A stretch of DNA of 64,000 bases from an uncultured virus (IMG/VR IMGVR_UViG_3300031787_000080) (lineage: Duplodnaviria > Heunggongvirae > Uroviricota > Caudoviricetes), in IMG/VR virus record IMGVR_UViG_3300031787_000080. One strand, 5' to 3'. The notes below the pieces were generated by a model. The model saw nothing but the letters and a program-made list of their open reading frames with translations. It did no database searches and was not told the origin of the DNA. The position numbers and the translations under genes are program-made. This document shows positions 7,212 to 62,671 of the stretch, one piece after another (the first letter of the stretch is position 1; each line of letters opens with the position of its first letter).

Positions 7212-7504
7212 TGGAACAAGACGTTTCTCAATATATTTTCATCTCACAAGAAAGCATTGACAAAGCTAAGAAACTTATGAAAAAAGCTCCAGAATCATTA
7301 GAAGATTGGGCAGAAGAAAATTCGCGGAAAGAACGCCGATTAGAAACTCGACGCAGATACTATCGTGAAAACAAAATTCAAATCAATGTTCGACGTAAAG
7401 AACGAAAAGAAGAAATTCGAGCTGAACAGATTAGAACAGAAAAAGAACTATCGGACAAGCTTCAAATGACACTAAATTTTGATTCTGATCGTAGTAATAA
7501 TTAA
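7211..7504 (+). CDS. Hypothetical basic coiled-coil protein
   Basis: TAATG coupling. Confidence 0.6.
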   Translation: MEQDVSQYIFISQESIDKAKKLMKKAPESLEDWAEENSRKERRLETRRRYYRENKIQINVRRKERKEEIRAEQIRTEKELSDKLQMTLNFDSDRSNN

Positions 7505-7505
7505 G

Positions 7506-8738
7506 ATGAGAAGTTTTTTGTCTCAGGATTTATATAAAATTACGATGAGCCAAGCAGTTTGGCGACTGTTTCCTAATGCCTGGGTGAAATATCACTATAA
7601 GCTTCGAACAAAAAACGTCAATCTTGCCCCGATTAAAGATCGAATTGATCGCAAAATTCATCAACTTCAAGGTATTGGGCCGACGGCGCTAGAAATCAAC
7701 TTTCTTCGATCATTGGGATATTTTGATCCGTCATTTTTGGCATCATTGGCACATTTCAAACTGAACCCAGATGCGTATGTGAAAACAAGCGTGGATCAAG
7801 GGCATTTTGATCTCGTGATCGAAGGACCTTGGTATGATACGATCTTCTTCGAAGTTATGCTGTTGCAAATCATCTCGGAAACATATTTCGAAGATCACGC
7901 CCGCGAACACCCAGAGGTTTTCGAGGAAGGCAGACAGCGATTGAATGAAAAAATCGAGCACTTGCTTCACATCTACGATCAGTATACAGATCATTACGAA
8001 AGTCTAAGGGACCTTGAGGGCGGGGGAGAACTCAATCCTTTCTGCCTGATGGAATTCGGCACTCGTCGAGCTTTTTCAGAATCGTGGCAAGGAGAAGTTG
8101 TTGAAACACTTGCGCAAAAACTTCCGCGTGAAATGTTCCTCGGTACATCAAACGTGTATTGGGCACAACAACTTGGGCTTAAGCCACAAGGCACGATGGC
8201 GCACGAATATATCTGTGCTCATGGAGCGCTTTATCCCTTGCATGAGGCGCAAAAGCAAGCTTTCTACAATTGGAACAAGGTGTTCCAAGGCAAGCTCGGA
8301 ACCGCGCTTTCAGATACATTCACTTTTGATCAATTCCTAAGAGACTTTGATTCGGGCTTGGCCAACTTGTTTACAGGAGCTAGGCACGACTCTGGTGATC
8401 CGTTCGAGTGGGGCCACAAACTCATTGAACACTATCGAACACTGGGAATCAACACTCATACCAAAGTGGCTGTGTGGAGCGATAATCTAGATATCGAGCT
8501 GGCAGAAAAGCTTTGGAAAACTTTTGCCCCGAAAATTAAAACATCATTCGGGATCGGGACCAATTTGACTAATGACATGGGGTTAAAGCCTTTGTCACAA
8601 GTCATTAAGCTTACTCATGTGAACAACATGCCAGTGATTAAGATTAGTGATGAACCCGAGAAAGTGATGTGCGAAGATGAAACATACAAGGCCTGGGCTT
8701 TGCGACTATTTACAGAAATTTTACCAAATCAATCATGA
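7506..8738 (+). CDS. pncB: Nicotinate phosphoribosyltransferase
   Basis: DLYK.TM.QA, EFGTRR, GTSN, GTMAHE, RHDSGDP, FGIGTNLTND, KISD.P.K motifs. Confidence 0.92.
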   Translation: MRSFLSQDLYKITMSQAVWRLFPNAWVKYHYKLRTKNVNLAPIKDRIDRKIHQLQGIGPTALEINFLRSLGYFDPSFLASLAHFKLNPDAYVKTSVDQGHFDLVIEGPWYDTIFFEVMLLQIISETYFEDHAREHPEVFEEGRQRLNEKIEHLLHIYDQYTDHYESLRDLEGGGELNPFCLMEFGTRRAFSESWQGEVVETLAQKLPREMFLGTSNVYWAQQLGLKPQGTMAHEYICAHGALYPLHEAQKQAFYNWNKVFQGKLGTALSDTFTFDQFLRDFDSGLANLFTGARHDSGDPFEWGHKLIEHYRTLGINTHTKVAVWSDNLDIELAEKLWKTFAPKIKTSFGIGTNLTNDMGLKPLSQVIKLTHVNNMPVIKISDEPEKVMCEDETYKAWALRLFTEILPNQS

Positions 8739-29301: not shown

Positions 29302-29369
29302 AACTTTTCAAAGGTGATCGCCGTATAACAAAAGAACATACACAAAGCAAAAGCTTTAAGGACACAATT

Positions 29370-29438
29370 ATGACTCGCCGATATCTTTCACTGCTAGGAC
29401 TCTTATCGCTTTCTCTTGAGAAAGCGGCGATTAGCTGA
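29370..29438 (+). CDS. Leu-rich leader peptide MTRRYLSLLGLLSLSLEKAAIS (putative attenuator)
   Basis: TAAGGA SD; 7 Leu codons; followed by terminator then tRNA-Leu genes. Confidence 0.8.
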   Translation: MTRRYLSLLGLLSLSLEKAAIS

Positions 29439-29459
29439 TAGATTTTGCGATCAGTGTTT

Positions 29460-29500
29460 AATCCCCGATTTCTCTCAAGGAGTCGGGGATTTTTGTTTTT
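29460..29500 (+). terminator. Intrinsic terminator (attenuator) upstream of tRNA-Leu pair
   Basis: AATCCCCGATTTC/GGAGTCGGGGATT stem plus TTTGTTTTT. Confidence 0.85.
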
Positions 29501-29511
29501 GCGTTTCACAT

Positions 29512-29596
29512 ACCGCTCTGGAGTAGCCAAACTTGCTACAGGCAACAGTCTTAGAAACTGTCTCTTTTCTGGGTTGGAATCCCAGGGGCGGTACCA
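29512..29596 (+). tRNA. tRNA-Leu(TAG), atypical
   Basis: ACCGCTC/GGGCGGT acceptor, ACAGT-CT TAG AA-ACTGT, CCA; enlarged D region, short variable loop. Confidence 0.75.
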
Positions 29597-29647
29597 ATAT
29601 TGACAATAGAATAGAGGAAAGAGAAAATAGATTTTCGAGTGATAAAT

Positions 29648-29734
29648 GCGGACGTGGCGGAATTGGTTTACGCGCTACTTTGAGATGGTAGTCCCCGATT
29701 GGGGGTGTGGGTTCGAGTCCCACCGTCCGCACCA
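29648..29734 (+). tRNA. tRNA-Leu(GAG)
   Basis: Full cloverleaf, long variable arm, CCA. Confidence 0.95.
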
Positions 29735-31830: not shown

Positions 31831-31967
31831 GTGCCAAGAAGCACTTGAAGTGCAGTCTACGGATATGCCTTATTAGGGCATGTGATTACTGCGTAGGAAG
31901 GACAGGGTGTAATGAAGTACGGTCGCGACGAAAAGTTACATCGGGTTAAAATCCCAACTTGGCACCA
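31831..31967 (+). ncRNA. tRNA-like structured RNA ending in CCA
   Basis: GTGCCAAG/CTTGGCAC terminal stem, T-arm-like GGG TTAAAAT CCC, own promoter. Confidence 0.6.
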
Positions 31968-31989
31968 AATTGAAAAATGAGAATCTAAT

Positions 31990-32290
31990 CGGGGCGTGGC
32001 GAAATGGCAGACGCAGGGGACTTATAAAATGAGCACTTGTTTGTGAAAGCTGCAAGTGAATGCAATCAAATTCGGTGAAACCTTAACAGTTAGGCTGATG
32101 GCAATACCGAGCCAAGCTAACTCAAAACAGAGTTAGAAGGTGTAGAGACTAGATGGTTGCTGCCTAAGTCGAAAGATATGGCAAAGGTATAGTCCAGACC
32201 ACAAAATCCTTTGGGATCGTAGTGAAAGCTATAGTGGTATGAAAATCCCTTAGTAGCAATACTGTGTGGGTTCGAGTCCCACCGCCCCGA
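31990..32290 (+). tRNA. tRNA-Leu(TAA) interrupted by a group I intron
   Basis: Exons 31990-32013 and 32242-32290 join to give GGGGA-CT TAA AA-TCCCT arm, T arm and CGGGGCG/CGCCCCG acceptor. Confidence 0.92.
32014..32241 (+). mobile_element. Group I intron (228 nt, no ORF)
   Basis: Inserted after anticodon U, ends in G; core elements AAATTCGGTGAA (P), AATACCGAGC (Q), GTAGAGACTAGA (R), AGGTATAGTCCA (S). Confidence 0.9.
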
Positions 32291-32340
32291 TTAGGTTATA
32301 TATTGATTACTAATGCGCTTTGTGTGCTTTTAGTATAAGA

Positions 32341-33215: not shown

Positions 33216-33283
33216 TATTTTCACATATGCATGACTATGTGAAAAATCCCCTGTTTTCTCTTTCTTGATCGGATATATAAATC

Positions 33284-33913
33284 ATGTTTAATATGAATGT
33301 GATTCTTTTCAAGAACAATTCTATCGAAGAAAATTATCTTTTCTCTGGTGAAAATTCTGAAGATGTTGCGAAAAAGGCAGAAAGCAAAATGATTGAAATT
33401 CTTCGTTCAGAAATGTCTAACTTTGACGAATACACGTCGGAAGATATTGACAACATTTTGGAAGATGGATATGAATCCTTTGGAAATGGAGCGGTTTTTA
33501 TTACGTGGCCTGACATTGTTGATGTTGATAAGGAGATTGATTCGGAAAATAATTTTGTTTTTCGTGGCACTATTGAATACTCCATCCCGCACATTGATTC
33601 AGAAGTAGTTCGCCTGTGCGCCGCACTAAATGAGCCCATTGAAGTTGGTCTACAGTGGGAATCACATTATCGCAATGGTAATGGCTACGCTGTCCGCGTT
33701 AATGCAGATATCTACTCAGTTGATGAAGAACTTGCTGCCGAGGAATTTAGTGATTATTGGGATTCAGGATGCGATGATGAAATTCGCTATTCTGGGGACT
33801 ACAATTGGTCCCTTTTGGGCAAAGACTATAAAGAGGCCATCAGTATTCTCCAAAAGTATGTTGATGAGCAAAAGCGTCGTTACCCAGGCTACGATATTAG
33901 AATTAGCAAATAA
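33284..33913 (+). CDS. Hypothetical acidic protein
   Basis: After promoter; C-terminus related to 23074. Confidence 0.7.
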   Translation: MFNMNVILFKNNSIEENYLFSGENSEDVAKKAESKMIEILRSEMSNFDEYTSEDIDNILEDGYESFGNGAVFITWPDIVDVDKEIDSENNFVFRGTIEYSIPHIDSEVVRLCAALNEPIEVGLQWESHYRNGNGYAVRVNADIYSVDEELAAEEFSDYWDSGCDDEIRYSGDYNWSLLGKDYKEAISILQKYVDEQKRRYPGYDIRISK

Positions 33914-34583: not shown

Positions 34584-34649
34584 TTTCATTCTCTTGAAAT
34601 GGTTTTAAAAAATCCCCTTTTTTCAGAAAACCAAATCAATATAAAAAAT

Positions 34650-34970
34650 ATGCGAATTCGACCGCAATCCGACCCGAACAAGGAATATCTCATCGACTTT
34701 TACTACCCGTATGGGAAGCAAGGACACAAGAAGAAGGGCACCAAGACTGTCTGCACTATCTCTGTCGGCCCTGTGGGTAGTCTCGACAAGGACAAGACCG
34801 AAGTCTCGACCACTACCGTTCGCCGACATAGTACCGATCAGGACAATCTTGTCGTAGCTCGTAATTATGCACTGGCCAAGGCCCTATCCCCGATTGAAGC
34901 TAGTGTCCGACAAGAGATTTGGGAACAGGCTCCGATTCGACGAGCAGACATTTCCCTGGAACTCGACTAA
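34650..34970 (+). CDS. Hypothetical protein
   Basis: ATG after promoter. Confidence 0.7.
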   Translation: MRIRPQSDPNKEYLIDFYYPYGKQGHKKKGTKTVCTISVGPVGSLDKDKTEVSTTTVRRHSTDQDNLVVARNYALAKALSPIEASVRQEIWEQAPIRRADISLELD

Positions 34971-34982
34971 ACTCCAAAAACA

Positions 34983-35018
34983 TTCTCATTGAGGGAGAAT
35001 TTAATCCCTCAATGAGAA
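34983..35018. terminator. Perfect 14-bp inverted repeat hairpin
   Basis: TTCTCATTGAGGGA/TCCCTCAATGAGAA followed by A-run. Confidence 0.6.
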
Positions 35019-35097
35019 AAAACAAAAAACTGCTAACAAAAAGCAGGTGATCGTCGTATAATAAGAGAAGAAACTGAAAAGCACAAAGAGCTATATT

Positions 35098-35220
35098 ATG
35101 AATCATCTCTTATCGACGACAATATGTGGAACAACAGGAACCTCAACAAGAGGAATCCTTTCCCTTGGCGTTATCGGCAAGGATAGTGATTCTGATTCAG
35201 GAGAACCCATCGAATCGTAG
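35098..35220 (+). CDS. Ser/Thr/Gly-rich leader peptide (40 aa, putative attenuator)
   Basis: MNHLLSTTICGTTGTSTRGILSLGVIGKDSDSDSGEPIES; followed by terminator and tRNA-Gly/Ser/Thr. Confidence 0.78.
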   Translation: MNHLLSTTICGTTGTSTRGILSLGVIGKDSDSDSGEPIES

Positions 35221-35240
35221 CTTTACTGTGATTACAGAAC

Positions 35241-35281
35241 AAAGAGGCTCGATTCGATAAGATCGAGCCTCTTTTCTTTTT
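35241..35281 (+). terminator. Intrinsic terminator (attenuator) upstream of tRNA-Gly/Ser/Thr
   Basis: AAAGAGGCTCGAT/ATCGAGCCTCTTT stem plus TCTTTTT. Confidence 0.88.
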
Positions 35282-35410
35282 AGATATGATGTCTGGGAAG
35301 AGAAAGATCGAATATTGAAAATTTCATACAGGTATAGATATAAAAGTGTTAGGGGGTGTTGGATCGATCTTTGATCGCAGGCCTCACCCCCTTGATCGAG
35401 ACACATTTTC

Positions 35411-35484
35411 GCGAGATTGGTATATGGGTTGTGCCCTAGCCTTCCAAGCTAGAGAAAAGGGTTCGAATCCCTTATCTCGCTCCA
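35411..35484 (+). tRNA. tRNA-Gly(TCC)
   Basis: Cloverleaf, CTAGC-CT TCC AA-GCTAG, U73, CCA. Confidence 0.93.
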
Positions 35485-35535
35485 ATTTAAGACACATTTC
35501 TTTGTGCTGCCAATGGGCAGCTTTCAAAAGAAAAC

Positions 35536-35622
35536 GGATGGGTGACAGAGCGATCTATTGTAGCGGTCTTGAAAACCGCCGTGCCAAAAGCACCGTGGGT
35601 TTGAATCCCACCCCATCCTCCA
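35536..35622 (+). tRNA. tRNA-Ser(TGA)
   Basis: Cloverleaf, long variable arm, CCA. Confidence 0.93.
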
Positions 35623-35720
35623 TTTTGTAACAAAATCATAAAATTCAAAGCAGGTGTAGCTCAGTGGTAGAGCGCCCGCCGCGAAGGTTGATGGTTGCAA
35701 TATCGATAAATAGATTATGT

Positions 35721-36137
35721 ATGGCAATAACAAAATACAAAGGAGCCGTCGGGCTAACTAATGTAATGGCCTGTCTTGTCAATCAAAAAGCAAAAATCTT
35801 TGTTCCAATAGACGAAGACTGTCAATATGACCTGGTGGTAGATTATCAAAATTATCTTTACAGAGTGCAAGTTAAATATGCTGAGGCAAAAAATGGCAAG
35901 ATCGTTGTAAAGACGCGCTCAACGAATAACTATTGTGAAATTCGTTATACTAAAGATCATTTTGACGTGATTGCTGTTTGGGACAATGTTGGCAAAAAAG
36001 CATATTTTATTTCATCGAATTTAATCACAGAAGGAATGACGGAAATGACCTTGAGATTAGATGCACCAAAAAACAATCAAACTAAAAACATAAGATTGGC
36101 TCGTAATTATGAGCAATTTAATGCTGCGGTCGCATAG
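35721..36137 (+). CDS. PD-(D/E)XK endonuclease, I-Ssp6803I/group I intron-associated type
   Basis: KG..G, P......YDLVVD......RVQVK, Y....FD..AVW, LR...PKNNQ...IR.A..Y. Confidence 0.85.
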   Translation: MAITKYKGAVGLTNVMACLVNQKAKIFVPIDEDCQYDLVVDYQNYLYRVQVKYAEAKNGKIVVKTRSTNNYCEIRYTKDHFDVIAVWDNVGKKAYFISSNLITEGMTEMTLRLDAPKNNQTKNIRLARNYEQFNAAVA

Positions 36138-36205
36138 TGGTCGATTGCACCTCTCTTGTAAAGAGGAACTCCACACCGTGGGTTCGAATCCCACCCGTAG
36201 CTCCA
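36123..36205 (+). tRNA. tRNA-Thr(TGT)
   Basis: GCTGCGG/CCGTAGC, CCTCT-CT TGT AA-AGAGG, CCA; 11-nt variable region. Confidence 0.9.
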
Positions 36206-36320
36206 TTTTTCGCACATATGTGTCAGGGGTTCGAATCCCCTCTCCTGCTTTGAGTTGAGTGATGATATCCGATCATAAAAAATCCCCCTTTTTCTCAATA
36301 GTGATCGGATATATAAAGTA

Positions 36321-36917
36321 TTGCTGTGAGCTAAATCAATTGACACAGCATGATGAAACCAAAATCATCTAAAAACAATAAGGTGCTCCATATACGTCTG
36401 GGAAAGATAAATTAGACGTGGACACACTGTGATGTGGACTAATCACAGCGCACTGGGGCATGTGTGCAAGCCCGAAAAGCCTATCTTTACTGATATAGTT
36501 AAAGAGAAAGAGCAGAGAGTTAAGGCTTAAAATAAACTCCATGCGTTCGTAAGGATGAACTCAAAGACGAGTTCAGTTATGACTAGGATACGAGAGGAGG
36601 GAGGCAATGAGTTTCTCTCCTCTCCCCGACAAAGCGATTTCCGACTGCTCATCGGAGAAGTGATCTAGTAAAACACTCAGAAAAACACTAGCGTAGGAAA
36701 TGCGTTAATCCCTGATTTTTTATCGGTTTTTAGAGACAAAAAACTGTTCGTATAGGGCTTGCGGTAAGCCTCTTGTTTTAGCTAGGTGATCCTGTATGTA
36801 AAAACCAAGCGGATGGAACAAATCAATTTGTTTTCGCGAGCAAATGATCCATTGACTTTGGGGAACAGCGTAAGAACGTTTCGCCATGAGGCTTTGAGCA
36901 AAGTCTCGTTCCCCAAA
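36321..36917 (+). ncRNA. Large (~600 nt) structured non-coding RNA candidate
   Basis: Own promoter, no plus-strand ORF of 60 aa or more, more than ten hairpins, abuts tRNA-Asp. Confidence 0.7.
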
Positions 36918-36931
36918 AATAAAAAGATTCT

Positions 36932-37008
36932 GGGTATGTAGTTCAGTTGGTTAGAGCACCTGCCTGTCACGCAGGAAGTCGCGAGTTCAAGTCTCGTCAT
37001 ATCCGCCA
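36932..37008 (+). tRNA. tRNA-Asp(GTC)
   Basis: Canonical cloverleaf, G73, CCA. Confidence 0.95.
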
Positions 37009-43545: not shown

Positions 43546-43755
43546 ATGAACGATTCAAATCGCTTTGAAGTAATCAGCTCAGGTCCATACAATTTGAAGA
43601 TTGTTGCGCAAACTATGACTGAGTGCATGGATATGATTCGACGAAACTCTGACATGGTGGACTTCTGGGCAGTTTTAGACCATTCTACGAAAACCGTGGT
43701 CGCTTTAAGCCAGGACTGGAAAGTCTTGCCAACATTCAAACCCGCAGTAAACTAA
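43546..43755 (+). CDS. Hypothetical protein
   Basis: After promoter; coupled to PARP gene. Confidence 0.6.
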   Translation: MNDSNRFEVISSGPYNLKIVAQTMTECMDMIRRNSDMVDFWAVLDHSTKTVVALSQDWKVLPTFKPAVN

Positions 43756-45035
43756 TGAAAGAATCTCGATATATTTTCGCTGACGTGAGCGCGAATAATA
43801 ACAAGTTTTGGAACATCAAAATTGAACCAAACTTCACGGTCGTAACTTCGTGGGGCCGAGTCGGAGATAACGCACAATCAAAGGAATTTCCCCACGGAAG
43901 CCTTGCAGACGCAGAAAAGTTCTTCGATAGGAAATGCCGCGAAAAGGAACGAAAAGGATACGTTAAGCAAAGAGTTCTGATCGGAGAATACACCACGCAA
44001 GATAACACTTCGCTTGCGTCAGTTGCCAAACAACAAATCAACACAAATAGCCCCGAATTAGATGAACTAATTGCCTTCCTGACTAAAGCAAACGTTCATA
44101 ACATTCTAACAGCAACAGCTATGGAATACGACACTTCAAAGGGAGTTTTTACAACGCCCCTCGGAGTTGTCACGAACGATGCCATTCAAGATGCACGAAG
44201 CATCTTGGCATCAATGGGCCTTCTTGTGCATAATCAAGATTGGAACTCCCCCGATTGGAATTCGCTCTTGTCTATGTACCTTACTGCCATCCCTCAAAAG
44301 ATTGGACGCAGAAAGCCAGACCCAAGAGAACTCTTCCCGAGCCTTCAAGCTATTCAAAATCAAAGCAAAATTCTTGACGACCTGGAAGCATCATTCCAAT
44401 CTGTCGTGAGCGCACCACTGACGCAGAAAGGGGATGACACAAACACGCCACAAGTGTTTGATGTGAAATTGCATCTTGTAGACGATCAAAGCATAATTCG
44501 ACGAATCAAAAACAAATACGACTCCACACGAAAGACCATGCACGCATCATATCATCTGGGGGTGAAACGAGTCTTTTCTGTCGAAATTAACGCGATGGCA
44601 AAGGCATATGGTGATCGGGGAAAGAACGTCGGCAACGTGATGGAACTCTGGCATGGGACACGAGCGGGGAACCTTTTGAGCATCCTTAAAGGCGGACTGC
44701 AAGTCCCACCCGCATCGAGCCCTCATGTGACGGGGAGAATGTTCGGGGATGGATTGTATTTTTCAGATCAGTCCACGAAAAGCCTCAATTATGCCTATGG
44801 AGCAGCACCAGGACAAAGAGGAGGAATTGAATCGTCCACGTTCATGTTTCTCGCAGATGTAGCAATGGGACGCCCATTTGTCCCAACGTCCTATACACGA
44901 CCGTCAAAGTACCCCGTGCAAGGACATGATTCAATATTTGCAAAAGCAGGACAATCAGGCGTACACAATAATGAAATGATCGTATACACCACCGATCAAT
45001 GCAACCTCACCTACCTGGTTGAATTCGGAAACTAA
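43755..45035 (+). CDS. WGR-domain poly(ADP-ribose) polymerase-like protein
   Basis: NNNKFW, WGRVG, EK..KGY; regulatory-like Y.T.IP; catalytic LWHGT, G.MFG.GLYFSD...KS.NY, NNE.IVY. Confidence 0.9.
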   Translation: MKESRYIFADVSANNNKFWNIKIEPNFTVVTSWGRVGDNAQSKEFPHGSLADAEKFFDRKCREKERKGYVKQRVLIGEYTTQDNTSLASVAKQQINTNSPELDELIAFLTKANVHNILTATAMEYDTSKGVFTTPLGVVTNDAIQDARSILASMGLLVHNQDWNSPDWNSLLSMYLTAIPQKIGRRKPDPRELFPSLQAIQNQSKILDDLEASFQSVVSAPLTQKGDDTNTPQVFDVKLHLVDDQSIIRRIKNKYDSTRKTMHASYHLGVKRVFSVEINAMAKAYGDRGKNVGNVMELWHGTRAGNLLSILKGGLQVPPASSPHVTGRMFGDGLYFSDQSTKSLNYAYGAAPGQRGGIESSTFMFLADVAMGRPFVPTSYTRPSKYPVQGHDSIFAKAGQSGVHNNEMIVYTTDQCNLTYLVEFGN

Positions 45036-50612: not shown

Positions 50613-51509
50613 ATGAGTAGAGTAAAGAGAGTTATTGATAATGGTCTGGTATCGAAAAACTCAGTGCCAAAGCACTTCCCCGATTCGATTCAATACGAGA
50701 CGATCATGGGAAGTGTGGCCTACGGAGTGTCTTCTGATACGTCGGATATGGATATTTATGGATTTTGTATCCCGCCCAAGCACATTGTCTTTCCTCACTT
50801 AGCGGGACATATCCCTGGCTTTGGTCAACAGCCTGAGAAATTCGAGCAATGGTCGGTGCATCATATCAAAGATGAAGAAAAAAATACCGAGTACGATTTT
50901 TGCATTTACAATATCGTCAAGTATTTTAGTTTGGTTATGGAAAACAATCCCAACATGGTGGATTCTCTTTTCACTCCACAAAACGCGATTTTGCACTGCT
51001 CTCCAATCGCTCAAATGGTGCGTGACGAACGTCATATCTTCTTGCATAAGGGAGCGTGGCACAAGTTCAAGGGCTATGCCTACTCGCAGATGCACAAAAT
51101 TCGATCAAAGGAGGCTCCGCAAGGCAAGCGAAAAGAGCTGGTGGAACAGTTTGGATTCGACGTGAAGTTTGCTTATCATGTTGTAAGATTGATTGACGAA
51201 GTTGAGCAAATTCTTGTTGAGGGCACTCTTGATCTTCAAAGAAATCGAGAACAGCTTAAATCTATTCGGAGAGGTGAATGGACTTTAGAGGAAATCGAGG
51301 AATACTTTACTCGTCGAGAAAAAGAACTTGAGCTGGCTTATGCTAACTCAAAGCTGCCTCACACGCCCGATGAAAAGCGAATCCGCCAGCTTTTGATGAA
51401 TTGCCTTGAGCATCATTACGGAAACCTATCAGACGCCGTAGTGGATGTTGACGCGGCCACGAGAACACTTCAGCAAGTTGCGCATCTAATTCGACAAGGG
51501 GGATTCTAA
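50613..51509 (+). CDS. Nucleotidyltransferase (Pol-beta superfamily, NrdC.11/RlaP-like)
   Basis: GS.AYG.....SD.DI.G, NPN, F.GYA.SQ, FD.KFAYH..RL, L..IR.G. Confidence 0.85.
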   Translation: MSRVKRVIDNGLVSKNSVPKHFPDSIQYETIMGSVAYGVSSDTSDMDIYGFCIPPKHIVFPHLAGHIPGFGQQPEKFEQWSVHHIKDEEKNTEYDFCIYNIVKYFSLVMENNPNMVDSLFTPQNAILHCSPIAQMVRDERHIFLHKGAWHKFKGYAYSQMHKIRSKEAPQGKRKELVEQFGFDVKFAYHVVRLIDEVEQILVEGTLDLQRNREQLKSIRRGEWTLEEIEEYFTRREKELELAYANSKLPHTPDEKRIRQLLMNCLEHHYGNLSDAVVDVDAATRTLQQVAHLIRQGGF

Positions 51510-55365: not shown

Positions 55366-55442
55366 GACTTTTTTAACAAAAAGTCCCAAAATCATAGGAC
55401 GATTTTGTTTTTTGATCGTATAATAGATAAGGACACTTTATT

Positions 55443-55535
55443 ATGAAGACCCACACCACATCAAATACGAATATGGTCTTCACCCGACGCAATTCCGCGA
55501 CGGGCGTCCAACAACGCTGTCGGCGTTCCGCTTAA
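55443..55535 (+). CDS. Leader peptide MKTHTTSNTNMVFTRRNSATGVQQRCRRSA (putative attenuator)
   Basis: TATAAT and TAAGGA SD; QQRCRR matches the downstream Gln/Gln/Arg/Arg/Cys tRNAs. Confidence 0.75.
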   Translation: MKTHTTSNTNMVFTRRNSATGVQQRCRRSA

Positions 55536-59892: not shown

Positions 59893-59986
59893 TGCGACAC
59901 TATATCATTTTTATGACTTTCTACGATTGTGTGGCACGATCATAAAAAATCCCCCTAATAAAGCTGAGTAATCGGATATATAATGT

Positions 59987-60066
59987 GGGGCAAATAGCTC
60001 AGTAAAGACATATGGGAATGTAACAGTAGAGGTTTCCGCGTATGTTCAAATCCTGTTGCTCCACCA
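59987..60066 (+). ncRNA. tRNA-like RNA with Ala identity (G3:U70, A73, CCA), no anticodon arm
   Basis: GGGGCAA/TTGCTCC-A-CCA, TAGCTCAG, GTTCAAATC; own promoter. Confidence 0.6.
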
Positions 60067-62493: not shown

Positions 62494-62671
62494 AAATTAC
62501 TTGACAATCGGAAAAATCCCCCTTTTCCACTAACACAATCGGATATATAAGCAGGTGTCCAGGGGGCGGTGAAAGTCCGCAAGGCGGCTGCAGAGTCATG
62601 AATCTGCAGTGCGGCTGGTTTCCTCTGCGCTTGCGCAAGACCACCCTGGCGAGCCTTCACAAGAGAGAAAT

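Follow-up and report, generated by a model that had tools for sequence, protein, structure and literature searches.

The segment at positions 35033-35283 on the plus strand of an uncultured jumbo phage (IMG/VR record IMGVR_UViG_3300031787_000080; Caudoviricetes) is, as judged from its sequence, probably a ribosome-mediated leader-peptide transcription attenuator that gates the genes for tRNA-Gly(UCC), tRNA-Ser(UGA) and tRNA-Thr(UGU), one of a family of such elements in this phage. The segment, referred to here as the Gly/Ser/Thr module, lies in a stretch of 64,000 nt (the window) which corresponds to the early region of the phage and whose plus strand carries nearly all genes; the elements of the module and the features following it up to position 36250 are all on this strand. 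There are 15 tRNA genes in the window and 34 in the nearest record, G001 (378,848 bases), on which all genome-wide statistics were computed. G001 is 100% identical to the window over 34900-36400 and has 81% of the window's sampled words in common with it; window positions are obtained by adding 11592 to those of G001. Two sister modules, M0 and M2, are located in the window, and two more, M3 and M4, in G001 outside the window.

We suggest the following mechanism. The transcript made from the promoter at 35033-35062 would carry, from its first ATG onwards, an open reading frame (ORF) of 40 codons that is rich in GGA, ACA/ACG and TCA/TCG. If this ORF is read quickly up to the TAG at 35218, the ribosome would cover 35209-35224, the 14-bp terminator hairpin at 35241-35274 would form, and transcription would stop. 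A ribosome lagging at any of codons 1-33, as expected if the cognate charged tRNAs are short, would leave 35209-35224 free; this strand could then pair with 35244-35258 once the latter has been made, so that no terminator forms and RNA polymerase reaches the tRNA genes. The newly made tRNAs would relieve the shortage and thus close a negative feedback loop. Some ungated expression may come in addition from 35315-35344, where an internal promoter is likely. We infer that the leader is translated in coupling with RNA polymerase and that it responds to tRNA supply with the feedback outlined here.

Leader codons and alternative hairpins

The leader ORF (35098-35220; 40 codons and TAG) uses the first ATG that follows the predicted start of transcription and is preceded by the Shine-Dalgarno-like sequence AAAGAG (35085-35090), 7 nt 5' of the ATG; the 5' end of the transcript is thus predicted to contain a short ORF equipped with both a start codon and a candidate ribosome-binding site. 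The context of this start codon, ACAAAGAG-N7-ATG, recurs at a 43-codon ORF before tRNA-Trp in G001. Translation of the ORF gives the peptide MNHLLSTTICGTTGTSTRGILSLGVIGKDSDSDSGEPIES with 7 Ser, 6 Thr and 6 Gly residues, exactly as the original prediction had it, and its codons include GGA and ACA (four times each), TCA and TCG (twice each, i. e. four together), GAT and ATC (three times each) and GGC (twice). Likewise, the three tRNAs said to read the dominant codons do follow the leader, Gly(TCC) at 35411, Ser(TGA) at 35536 and Thr(TGT) at 36123. If the codons read by these tRNAs under standard wobble are taken as cognate, they account for 13 of the 40 leader codons as compared to 8.6% across the 329 long ORFs of the phage. 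Such a share was matched by 3 of 1316 short ORFs of 30-60 codons and, over a wider length range, by 3 of 2018 (empirical tail 0.0015), and only 0.15% of the 4791 40-codon windows inside genes have at least 13 cognate codons. Moreover, the enrichment is specific for the reading frame: each of the other plus-strand frames has 2/40 cognate codons, and the reverse frames have 3-5 of about 40. The leader is therefore enriched in regulatory codons that are cognate to the tRNAs which the operon would produce.

It had also been proposed that the match extends to the level of the anticodon. For the given leader peptide, the choice of synonymous codons is biased towards the cognate ones with P = 0.028 if the usage of all genes is taken as reference and with P = 0.011 for the usage of early genes. 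Since these values are only in the range of 0.011-0.028, the contribution of the anticodon level is modest and most of the signal resides in the amino acid composition; with P about 0.01-0.04 beyond the amino-acid level, this part of the proposal receives modest support. Another part did not hold up: the AGT and TCC/TCT codons were thought to match tRNAs further downstream, and neither the window nor G001 contains a tRNA-Ser with the anticodon GCU or GGA. The remaining matches to downstream tRNAs carry little information, as the phage has 34 tRNAs, and ATA is matched only if the tRNA with the anticodon CAU is of the Ile2 type.

The candidate promoter of the leader (35033-35063) reads CTAACA-18-TATAAT, a match to 10 of 12 positions of a sigma70-like promoter, with the TATAAT box at 35057-35062 and the motif AGGTGATCGTCGTATAATA at 35045-35063. 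It is not of the early type that is canonical in this phage (see below): the 47 instances on which the position weight matrix (PWM) of that type was built score at least 26, and the leader promoter scores -21.9. Its motif AGGT..TATAAYA, in turn, recurs in front of the Leu module M0 (29312) and of the Lys module M4 of G001. Between the leader ORF and the tRNA genes, an intrinsic terminator (3:4) is predicted at 35241-35283, made up of a 14-bp stem with a 6-nt loop (35241-35274) and a T tract, with a stability of -21.7 kcal/mol. The 5' strand of the antiterminator (region 2, 35209-35224) contains the stop codon of the leader (TAG, 35218-35220), and its partner (region 3, 35244-35258) is common to the antiterminator (2:3) and the terminator (3:4). 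The original prediction had described ATCGAATCG (35209-35217) as the exact complement of CGATTCGAT (35250-35258). This is the case, and the real pairing is longer: 35209-35224 and 35244-35258 form 15 bp with a single 1-nt bulge and -20.6 kcal/mol, nearly isoenergetic with the terminator. If the 3' arm of the terminator is withheld, the RNA folds into the antiterminator with -25.5 kcal/mol (z -3.5; none of 200 shuffles was as stable). Of 4000 random genomic 40-mers, 17 were as stable as the real upstream 40-mer when folded with the 5' half of the terminator (tail 0.004), and the number of pairs that the upstream strand makes with the terminator arm has P = 0.023 under the same-genome null. A further pairing of the antiterminator strand with GATTCTGAT (35188-35196) had been put forward as well. 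This sequence is present at that site, within a weak region 1 (GTGATTCTGATTC, 35186-35198, encoding Asp-Ser-Asp-Ser), and in the full-length fold GATTC at 35194-35198 pairs with GAATC at 35212-35216; the pairing is weak, the best 1:2 fold within 35184-35226 reaching -6.3 kcal/mol.

In a ribosome-masking model with a footprint from -15 to +14 relative to the A site, the antiterminator forms when the A site is at codons 1-33 and in part at codons 34-35, and it is blocked from codon 36 to the stop codon. In this model, the module thus has an antiterminator that excludes the terminator and whose region 2 is masked by a ribosome at the stop codon.

RNA from the leader was found among the Logan contigs of four RNA runs (X15-X18), of which X15, X16 and X17 are metatranscriptomes from three studies. 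Mismatch-free contigs cover 35079-35332, 35082-35355 and 35096-35265 in X15, X16 and X17, respectively, at a depth of 2.5-7; two of them cross the terminator, and that of X17 stops inside the hairpin at 35265. The upstream gene (34653-34970) is covered in none of these three runs, and X18 covers 34731-34967 but not the leader. This pattern is consistent with an RNA whose start lies just past the TATAAT box (35057-35062), with partial read-through of the terminator. For 35356-35410 and the mature tRNAs there is no RNA contig in the four runs, a result that is uninformative.

The TAG codon ends both the leader of the Gly/Ser/Thr module and that of the Lys module, and G001 contains two tRNAs with a CUA anticodon (294691-294763 and 294784-294858), i. 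e. amber suppressors, which are labelled Pyl by ARAGORN. In the Gly/Ser/Thr module, amber suppression would let the ribosome pass the terminator hairpin and go on to 35281, where the next TAG is located. Reading TAG as sense in G001 increases the coverage by long ORFs merely from 0.814 to 0.843.

Sister modules and the genome-wide association

The module M0 (29312-29501), which precedes tRNA-Leu, has what looks like the classical trp/leu attenuator design in its sequence. It starts with the promoter-like AGGTGATCGCCGTATAACA at 29312, near-identical to AGGTGATCGTCGTATAATA, followed by the Shine-Dalgarno sequence AAGGA (29358-29362) and a leader of 22 codons (29370-29438; MTRRYLSLLGLLSLSLEKAAIS) that contains 7 Leu codons, six of them CTN. 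Here, region 1 (TCGCTTTCT, 29406-29414) has the Leu codons inside and forms a 1:2 hairpin of 9 bp and -11.3 kcal/mol; regions 2 (29418-29433) and 3 (29459-29474) pair over 14 bp with -20.3 kcal/mol, and the terminator (29460-29491; 14 bp, -20.6 kcal/mol) runs into the T tract TTTGTTTTT. In the masking model, read-through is predicted for A sites at codons 1-12, with Leu at codons 6, 8, 9, 11 and 12. A tRNA-like element follows 9 nt past the T tract (Rfam, 25 bits over 29524-29585; gathering score 29); by reading, it spans 29511-29596 with the anticodon loop CTTAGAA and a CCA end. The gap of 9 nt leaves no room for a promoter before this first tRNA-like element. The gene for tRNA-Leu(GAG) comes next at 29648-29734. 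A match of M0 to the PyrR site (27.3 bits; gathering score 54) was discarded, as it reflects the layout of three hairpins and not membership.

The module M2 (55414-55535) has the promoter GATCGTATAAT at 55414, the Shine-Dalgarno sequence AAGGA and a leader of 30 codons (55443-55535), near the end of which stand CAA CAA CGC TGT CGG CGT, i. e. Gln-Gln-Arg-Cys-Arg-Arg (55509-55526). On its 3' side lie two tRNA-Gln genes, an HNH ORF, tRNA-Arg(UCG), tRNA-Arg(GCG) and tRNA-Cys. Its share of cognate codons (8/30) is matched by 79 of 2489 short ORFs, and the only one among these 2489 with a run of six cognate codons is M2 itself. The 3' end of the M2 ORF pairs with the stretch right before tRNA-Gln. 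In G001, M3 (312544-312947) consists of a promoter, a Shine-Dalgarno sequence, the leader MKAMQVNNMEIIAAGAFNATAVVFAIPASPWYFEPGRKTETLT and a 14-bp terminator and precedes tRNA-Trp and its block, and M4 (295116-295315), with a promoter, a Shine-Dalgarno sequence, the leader MRHNILKRKPKHY and a hairpin, precedes two tRNA-Lys genes. The codon match is weaker in both of them (P 0.057 and 0.031 for M3 and M4, respectively).

The association between leaders and tRNAs was also evaluated by a fixed rule. For the 33 plus-strand tRNAs of G001, every ORF of 10-80 codons that starts with ATG and ends at most 300 nt upstream was scored by the fraction of its codons that can be read by the tRNAs downstream of it (gaps below 1000 nt), and the score was ranked against short ORFs of like length. 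Among the 45 upstream ORFs, nine had p<0.05 and four p<0.01; with mismatched, i. e. disjoint, tRNA sets, these numbers were 37 and 11 of 716. The sum of -ln(min p) over 19 tRNA heads was 52.7 as compared to 29.8 +/- 5.3 after permutation, a value that none of 2000 permutations reached, and it was still 45.8 against 27.5 +/- 5.2 (P 0.001) when the head of the Gly/Ser/Thr module itself was left out. Nine of ten parameter settings gave P<=0.008 and the remaining one 0.062, and ORFs on the minus strand gave P 0.35 at the level of the tRNAs. When the tRNAs were grouped into 12 clusters, permutation P was 0.001 for plus-strand ORFs upstream of the head, 0.88 for those far upstream (300-900 nt) and 0.36 for upstream ORFs on the minus strand. 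Removal of the ORFs that overlap genes left the upstream association at P 0.001-0.003 (9 clusters, 18 ORFs) and the minus strand at about 0.4. In 80 unrelated viral contigs with tRNA arrays (119 stretches minus 39 shorter than 2500 bases), the same test was null: for 252 heads and 458 ORFs, p<0.05 was reached by 17 ORFs and p<0.01 by one (z -0.71).

It is tempting to speculate that each of several tRNA blocks of this phage is gated by its own codon-matched leader (Leu; Gly/Ser/Thr; Gln/Arg/Cys; perhaps also Lys and the Trp block), and that the phage senses during infection which host codons are decoded slowly and switches on the matching tRNAs; we regard this wider picture as plausible, if somewhat short of probable. 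Why and when phages use tRNA genes is an open question, and the regulation of these genes has hardly been studied. A leader that tests codons and releases the matching tRNAs would be a direct and self-correcting answer, and codon-usage compensation would become testable with reporters. If the idea is true, leader-peptide attenuation would extend to a new class of genes and to viruses, attenuation would have been turned from the sensing of amino acids to that of isoacceptors, and the phage would be a natural sensor of isoacceptor supply.

Alternative explanations and known systems

The codon match and the geometry of the hairpins speak for an attenuator, the decisive support coming from the sister modules and the genome-wide association, and an internal promoter and the weak 1:2 pairing speak against it. 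The candidate internal promoter (35315-35344; TTGAAA-18-TATAAA, 10/12 sigma70-like) lies between the terminator and tRNA-Gly, and the tRNAs may thus be made without any read-through. Sites of this quality occur 108 times on both strands of G001 (0.143 per kb and strand), so that 0.019 would be expected in the 131-nt spacer 35281-35411. A strong constitutive promoter in this very interval that drives the tRNAs had been named as a finding that would refute the proposal. The 10/12 site corresponds to this in part; it is not a canonical phage promoter: its -10 box resembles the ATATAAAAG variant of the phage promoters, the AAAAATCCCC box is absent, and the PWM score is -18.9 as opposed to at least 26. 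The tRNA genes may therefore not depend on read-through alone, and the attenuator may gate only part of their expression, as in bacterial operons with internal promoters.

This site invites the alternative that the leader belongs to an independent small unit, encoding a protein of 40 residues or a small RNA of about 200 nt with its own terminator, and that the tRNAs are made from the internal promoter, the codon match having no regulatory meaning. The TTGAAA-18-TATAAA site is unlikely to have arisen by chance, the terminator is strong and the X17 contig ends in its hairpin at 35265, and about 100 nt contain five GGA triplets, four of them in frame, which might also represent a protein-binding motif of a small RNA. 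Such a unit leaves unexplained the frame-specific enrichment of codons, the isoenergetic antiterminator with a stop codon inside, the position of the tRNA-like element 9 nt past the T tract of M0, and the genome-wide association; moreover, two of the three RNA contigs cross the terminator, and the peptide has no match to a Pfam family. We therefore consider this explanation unlikely. A regulated terminator that is not codon-specific, either a sensor of transcription-translation coupling or the target of a phage antitermination factor that times tRNA expression, would account for the well supported pair of antiterminator and terminator. As the 1:2 pairing is weak, read-through would result whenever the ribosome is late or absent, and the codon-matched M2, which has no clear terminator, suggests that mechanisms may differ among the modules. 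A non-specific sensor would not need a leader whose composition follows its own tRNA block and not the others, as is the case for each of the leaders, and this makes the explanation rather improbable in our eyes. Finally, the arrangement may be due to chance: the leader would be a spurious ORF that owes its existence to a scarcity of stop codons, the terminator next to it would be an ordinary one, and the upstream complement would be a coincidence favoured by the many GATTC/GAATC/TCGA words. The site was picked after the fact, three of the six frames are open at the leader, and GAATC (463) and GATTC (483) are slightly over-represented in the phage, about 410 being expected. The tail probabilities within the same genome (0.0015 for the codons, 0.004 for the fold), the recurrence of the pattern in independent modules of the same phage and the null result with the 80 other viral contigs make chance a very improbable explanation.

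Several further observations weigh against the attenuator that we favour. The leader region is open also in a second plus-strand frame and in one minus-strand frame, hence an ORF of this length is not unusual in itself, and AAAGAG is a weak Shine-Dalgarno match. In the masking model, the terminator wins at equilibrium in all states; the switch must therefore be kinetic. The 1:2 pairing of the Gly/Ser/Thr module is so weak that an untranslated leader would probably read through, unlike that of trp. Among the sister modules, M2 has no recognisable intrinsic terminator, the antiterminators of M3 and M4 comprise 7 bp and do not exceed random expectation (P 0.41 and 0.27, respectively), and a comparable promoter-like site, TTGACA-17-GAAAAT, is found at 29600 before tRNA-Leu(GAG). 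The sister modules had been spotted by eye before the rule-based test was written. In that test, plus-strand ORFs just downstream also gave a permutation P of 0.002 at the cluster level; most of these matches come from ORFs that lie within real genes or across their ends in another frame and thus indicate an effect of local composition, and removal of the gene-overlapping ORFs brought P to about 0.11, with only 5 clusters and 12 ORFs left. The contigs cannot show RNA ends, strand or level, and they may include carried-over DNA.

Nor did the collections that we searched contain a diverged relative of the module. The 123-residue upstream ORF as a query retrieved one weak, unrelated locus. In 128 loci compared by blastn, including 119 viral stretches from a scan for the anticodon arm of tRNA-Gly, similarity outside the phage's own loci was confined to the tRNAs, and blastn against 50,697 phage records gave tRNA matches only. 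The phage promoter motif was found in none of the other viral contigs. In metagenomes it was present in 65 stretches, all from the same phage, with 100% identity over 34600-36400 where covered; the exceptions are two small contigs that do not reach the leader module. The metagenomes in which the phage occurs are mostly labelled freshwater metagenome, and four are labelled fungus metagenome.

Searches of Rfam over 34950-37000 (E<=5) revealed no leader, T-box or group I intron, and no member of the Trp, His, Leu and Thr leader families reached its gathering score in the window; the nearest was Thr_leader, which matched the minus strand of the terminator hairpin with 22.7 bits (gathering score 55). 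Among the leader-peptide attenuators of enterobacteria are trpL, hisL, leuL and pheL as well as the multivalent thrL and ilvL. The mechanism of attenuation by the pheL leader peptide is described in PMC3082878. The phage module shares with the enterobacterial attenuators a promoter, a short codon-enriched ORF, mutually exclusive 2:3 and 3:4 hairpins, a terminator and a stop codon that is positioned for masking of region 2, and M0 has in addition the enterobacterial type of 1:2 hairpin with the regulatory Leu codons inside. The Gly/Ser/Thr module would sense several amino acids together, like thrL and ilvL. Unlike the enterobacterial attenuators, the Gly/Ser/Thr module has a weak candidate for the anti-antiterminator (1:2) and probably an internal promoter, it resembles none of the Rfam leaders in sequence or profile, and the gated genes are tRNA genes of a phage rather than genes for biosynthetic enzymes. 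The output would therefore repair the decoding shortage itself, and the quantity that is sensed would effectively be the supply of isoacceptors. T-boxes, which control synthetase and amino-acid genes, bind uncharged tRNA via a specifier codon and the T-box bulge and do not require translation. The phage module resembles them as a leader RNA in which the choice between antiterminator and terminator reports the status of a tRNA, and it differs by its codon-matched ORF that is predicted to be translated; no T-box match was obtained at the gathering or at a permissive threshold, and the module is not a member of this class. The titles and abstract beginnings retrieved in a literature search contained no description of attenuators before tRNA genes. 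E. coli pheV was considered as a precedent and dismissed: its upstream sequence contains TTGACG..TTTAAT, which resembles a promoter, and lacks a Phe-rich ORF of at least 20 codons.

The tRNA block and its surroundings

The spacer downstream of the terminator contains a hairpin formed by AGGGGGTG...CACCCCCT (35351-35392), and the fold of the whole spacer is ordinary (z -0.78). It is followed by the genes for tRNA-Gly(UCC) (35411-35484) and tRNA-Ser(UGA) (35536-35622), by an ORF for a PD-(D/E)XK endonuclease (PF11645, E 6.6e-23) that starts at 35664 or 35724 and ends at 36137, and by the gene for tRNA-Thr(UGU) (36123-36205; 83 nt, 57.3 bits), which overlaps the end of the endonuclease ORF by 15 nt. 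Two tRNA-like halves, at about 35651-35690 and at 36222-36250, flank the endonuclease ORF and tRNA-Thr, and their acceptor strands pair at 6 of 7 positions. The segment 35651-36250 may be a tRNA gene disrupted by a mobile cassette of endonuclease and tRNA, or it may hold an intervening sequence of a new kind. An intron search with ARAGORN and Rfam detected neither a group I intron nor an intron-bearing tRNA in this segment, and no spliced RNA contig was found. Splice-like joints in RNA contigs over 35651/36250 were rejected, since they stem from foreign tRNAs, in which the sequence between the two sides is different.

The segment 36237-36880, between the canonical promoter at 36276 and tRNA-Asp (36932), is without a convincing ORF and has no Rfam match at E<=5. 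In two runs it is covered by RNA contigs of depth 53 and 142, which exceed all others in the region, and it has a terminator-like hairpin at 36755-36771; possibly, it is an abundant non-coding RNA or a long leader of tRNA-Asp. Further upstream, tRNA-Leu(UAA) (31989-32291) has a 218-nt group I intron in its anticodon loop, as indicated by ARAGORN and by a match to Rfam Intron_gpI (32013-32216, 58.2 bits). Just 5' of this gene, 31831-31968 looks tRNA-like, with the paired ends GTGCCAAG/CTTGGCAC and CCA.

The early-gene promoter of the phage is very regular. It consists of AAAAATCCCC, about 20 nt, and then (AATCGG)ATATATAAA, as for example at 33242-33290 and 36276-36322. A looser pattern of it has 51 of its 52 matches in the first 60 kb of G001, and the 47 instances with exact spacing, on which the PWM was built, are likewise confined to it with one outlier. 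The ATG of the early genes is mostly located 4 nt past TATAWA, and most of them are without any leader; the early mRNAs would therefore be leaderless or nearly so. Some copies of the promoter also form a hairpin with GGGGGATTTTT. At 59944-60010 and 62512-62560, canonical promoters are followed not by an ATG but by structured-looking RNA starts (GGGGCAAATAGCTCAGT... and GCAGGTGTCCAGGGGGCGGTGAAAGTCCGC..., respectively), of which the GGGGCAAATAGCTCAGT... element is tRNA-like and is not called by ARAGORN even with the intron search.

The whole record of G001 contains no CGATCG, GGATCC or GCGATCGC, about 57, 57 and 2 being expected, respectively, and GATC is present at expectation. The missing sites suggest that the phage avoids restriction sites of its host. 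Finally, the window encodes a nicotinate phosphoribosyltransferase (7479-8738), a protein with WGR, PARP-regulatory and PARP-catalytic domains (43755-45035) and an RlaP-type nucleotidyltransferase (50613-51509); the PARP-like set of domains is uncommon in a phage.

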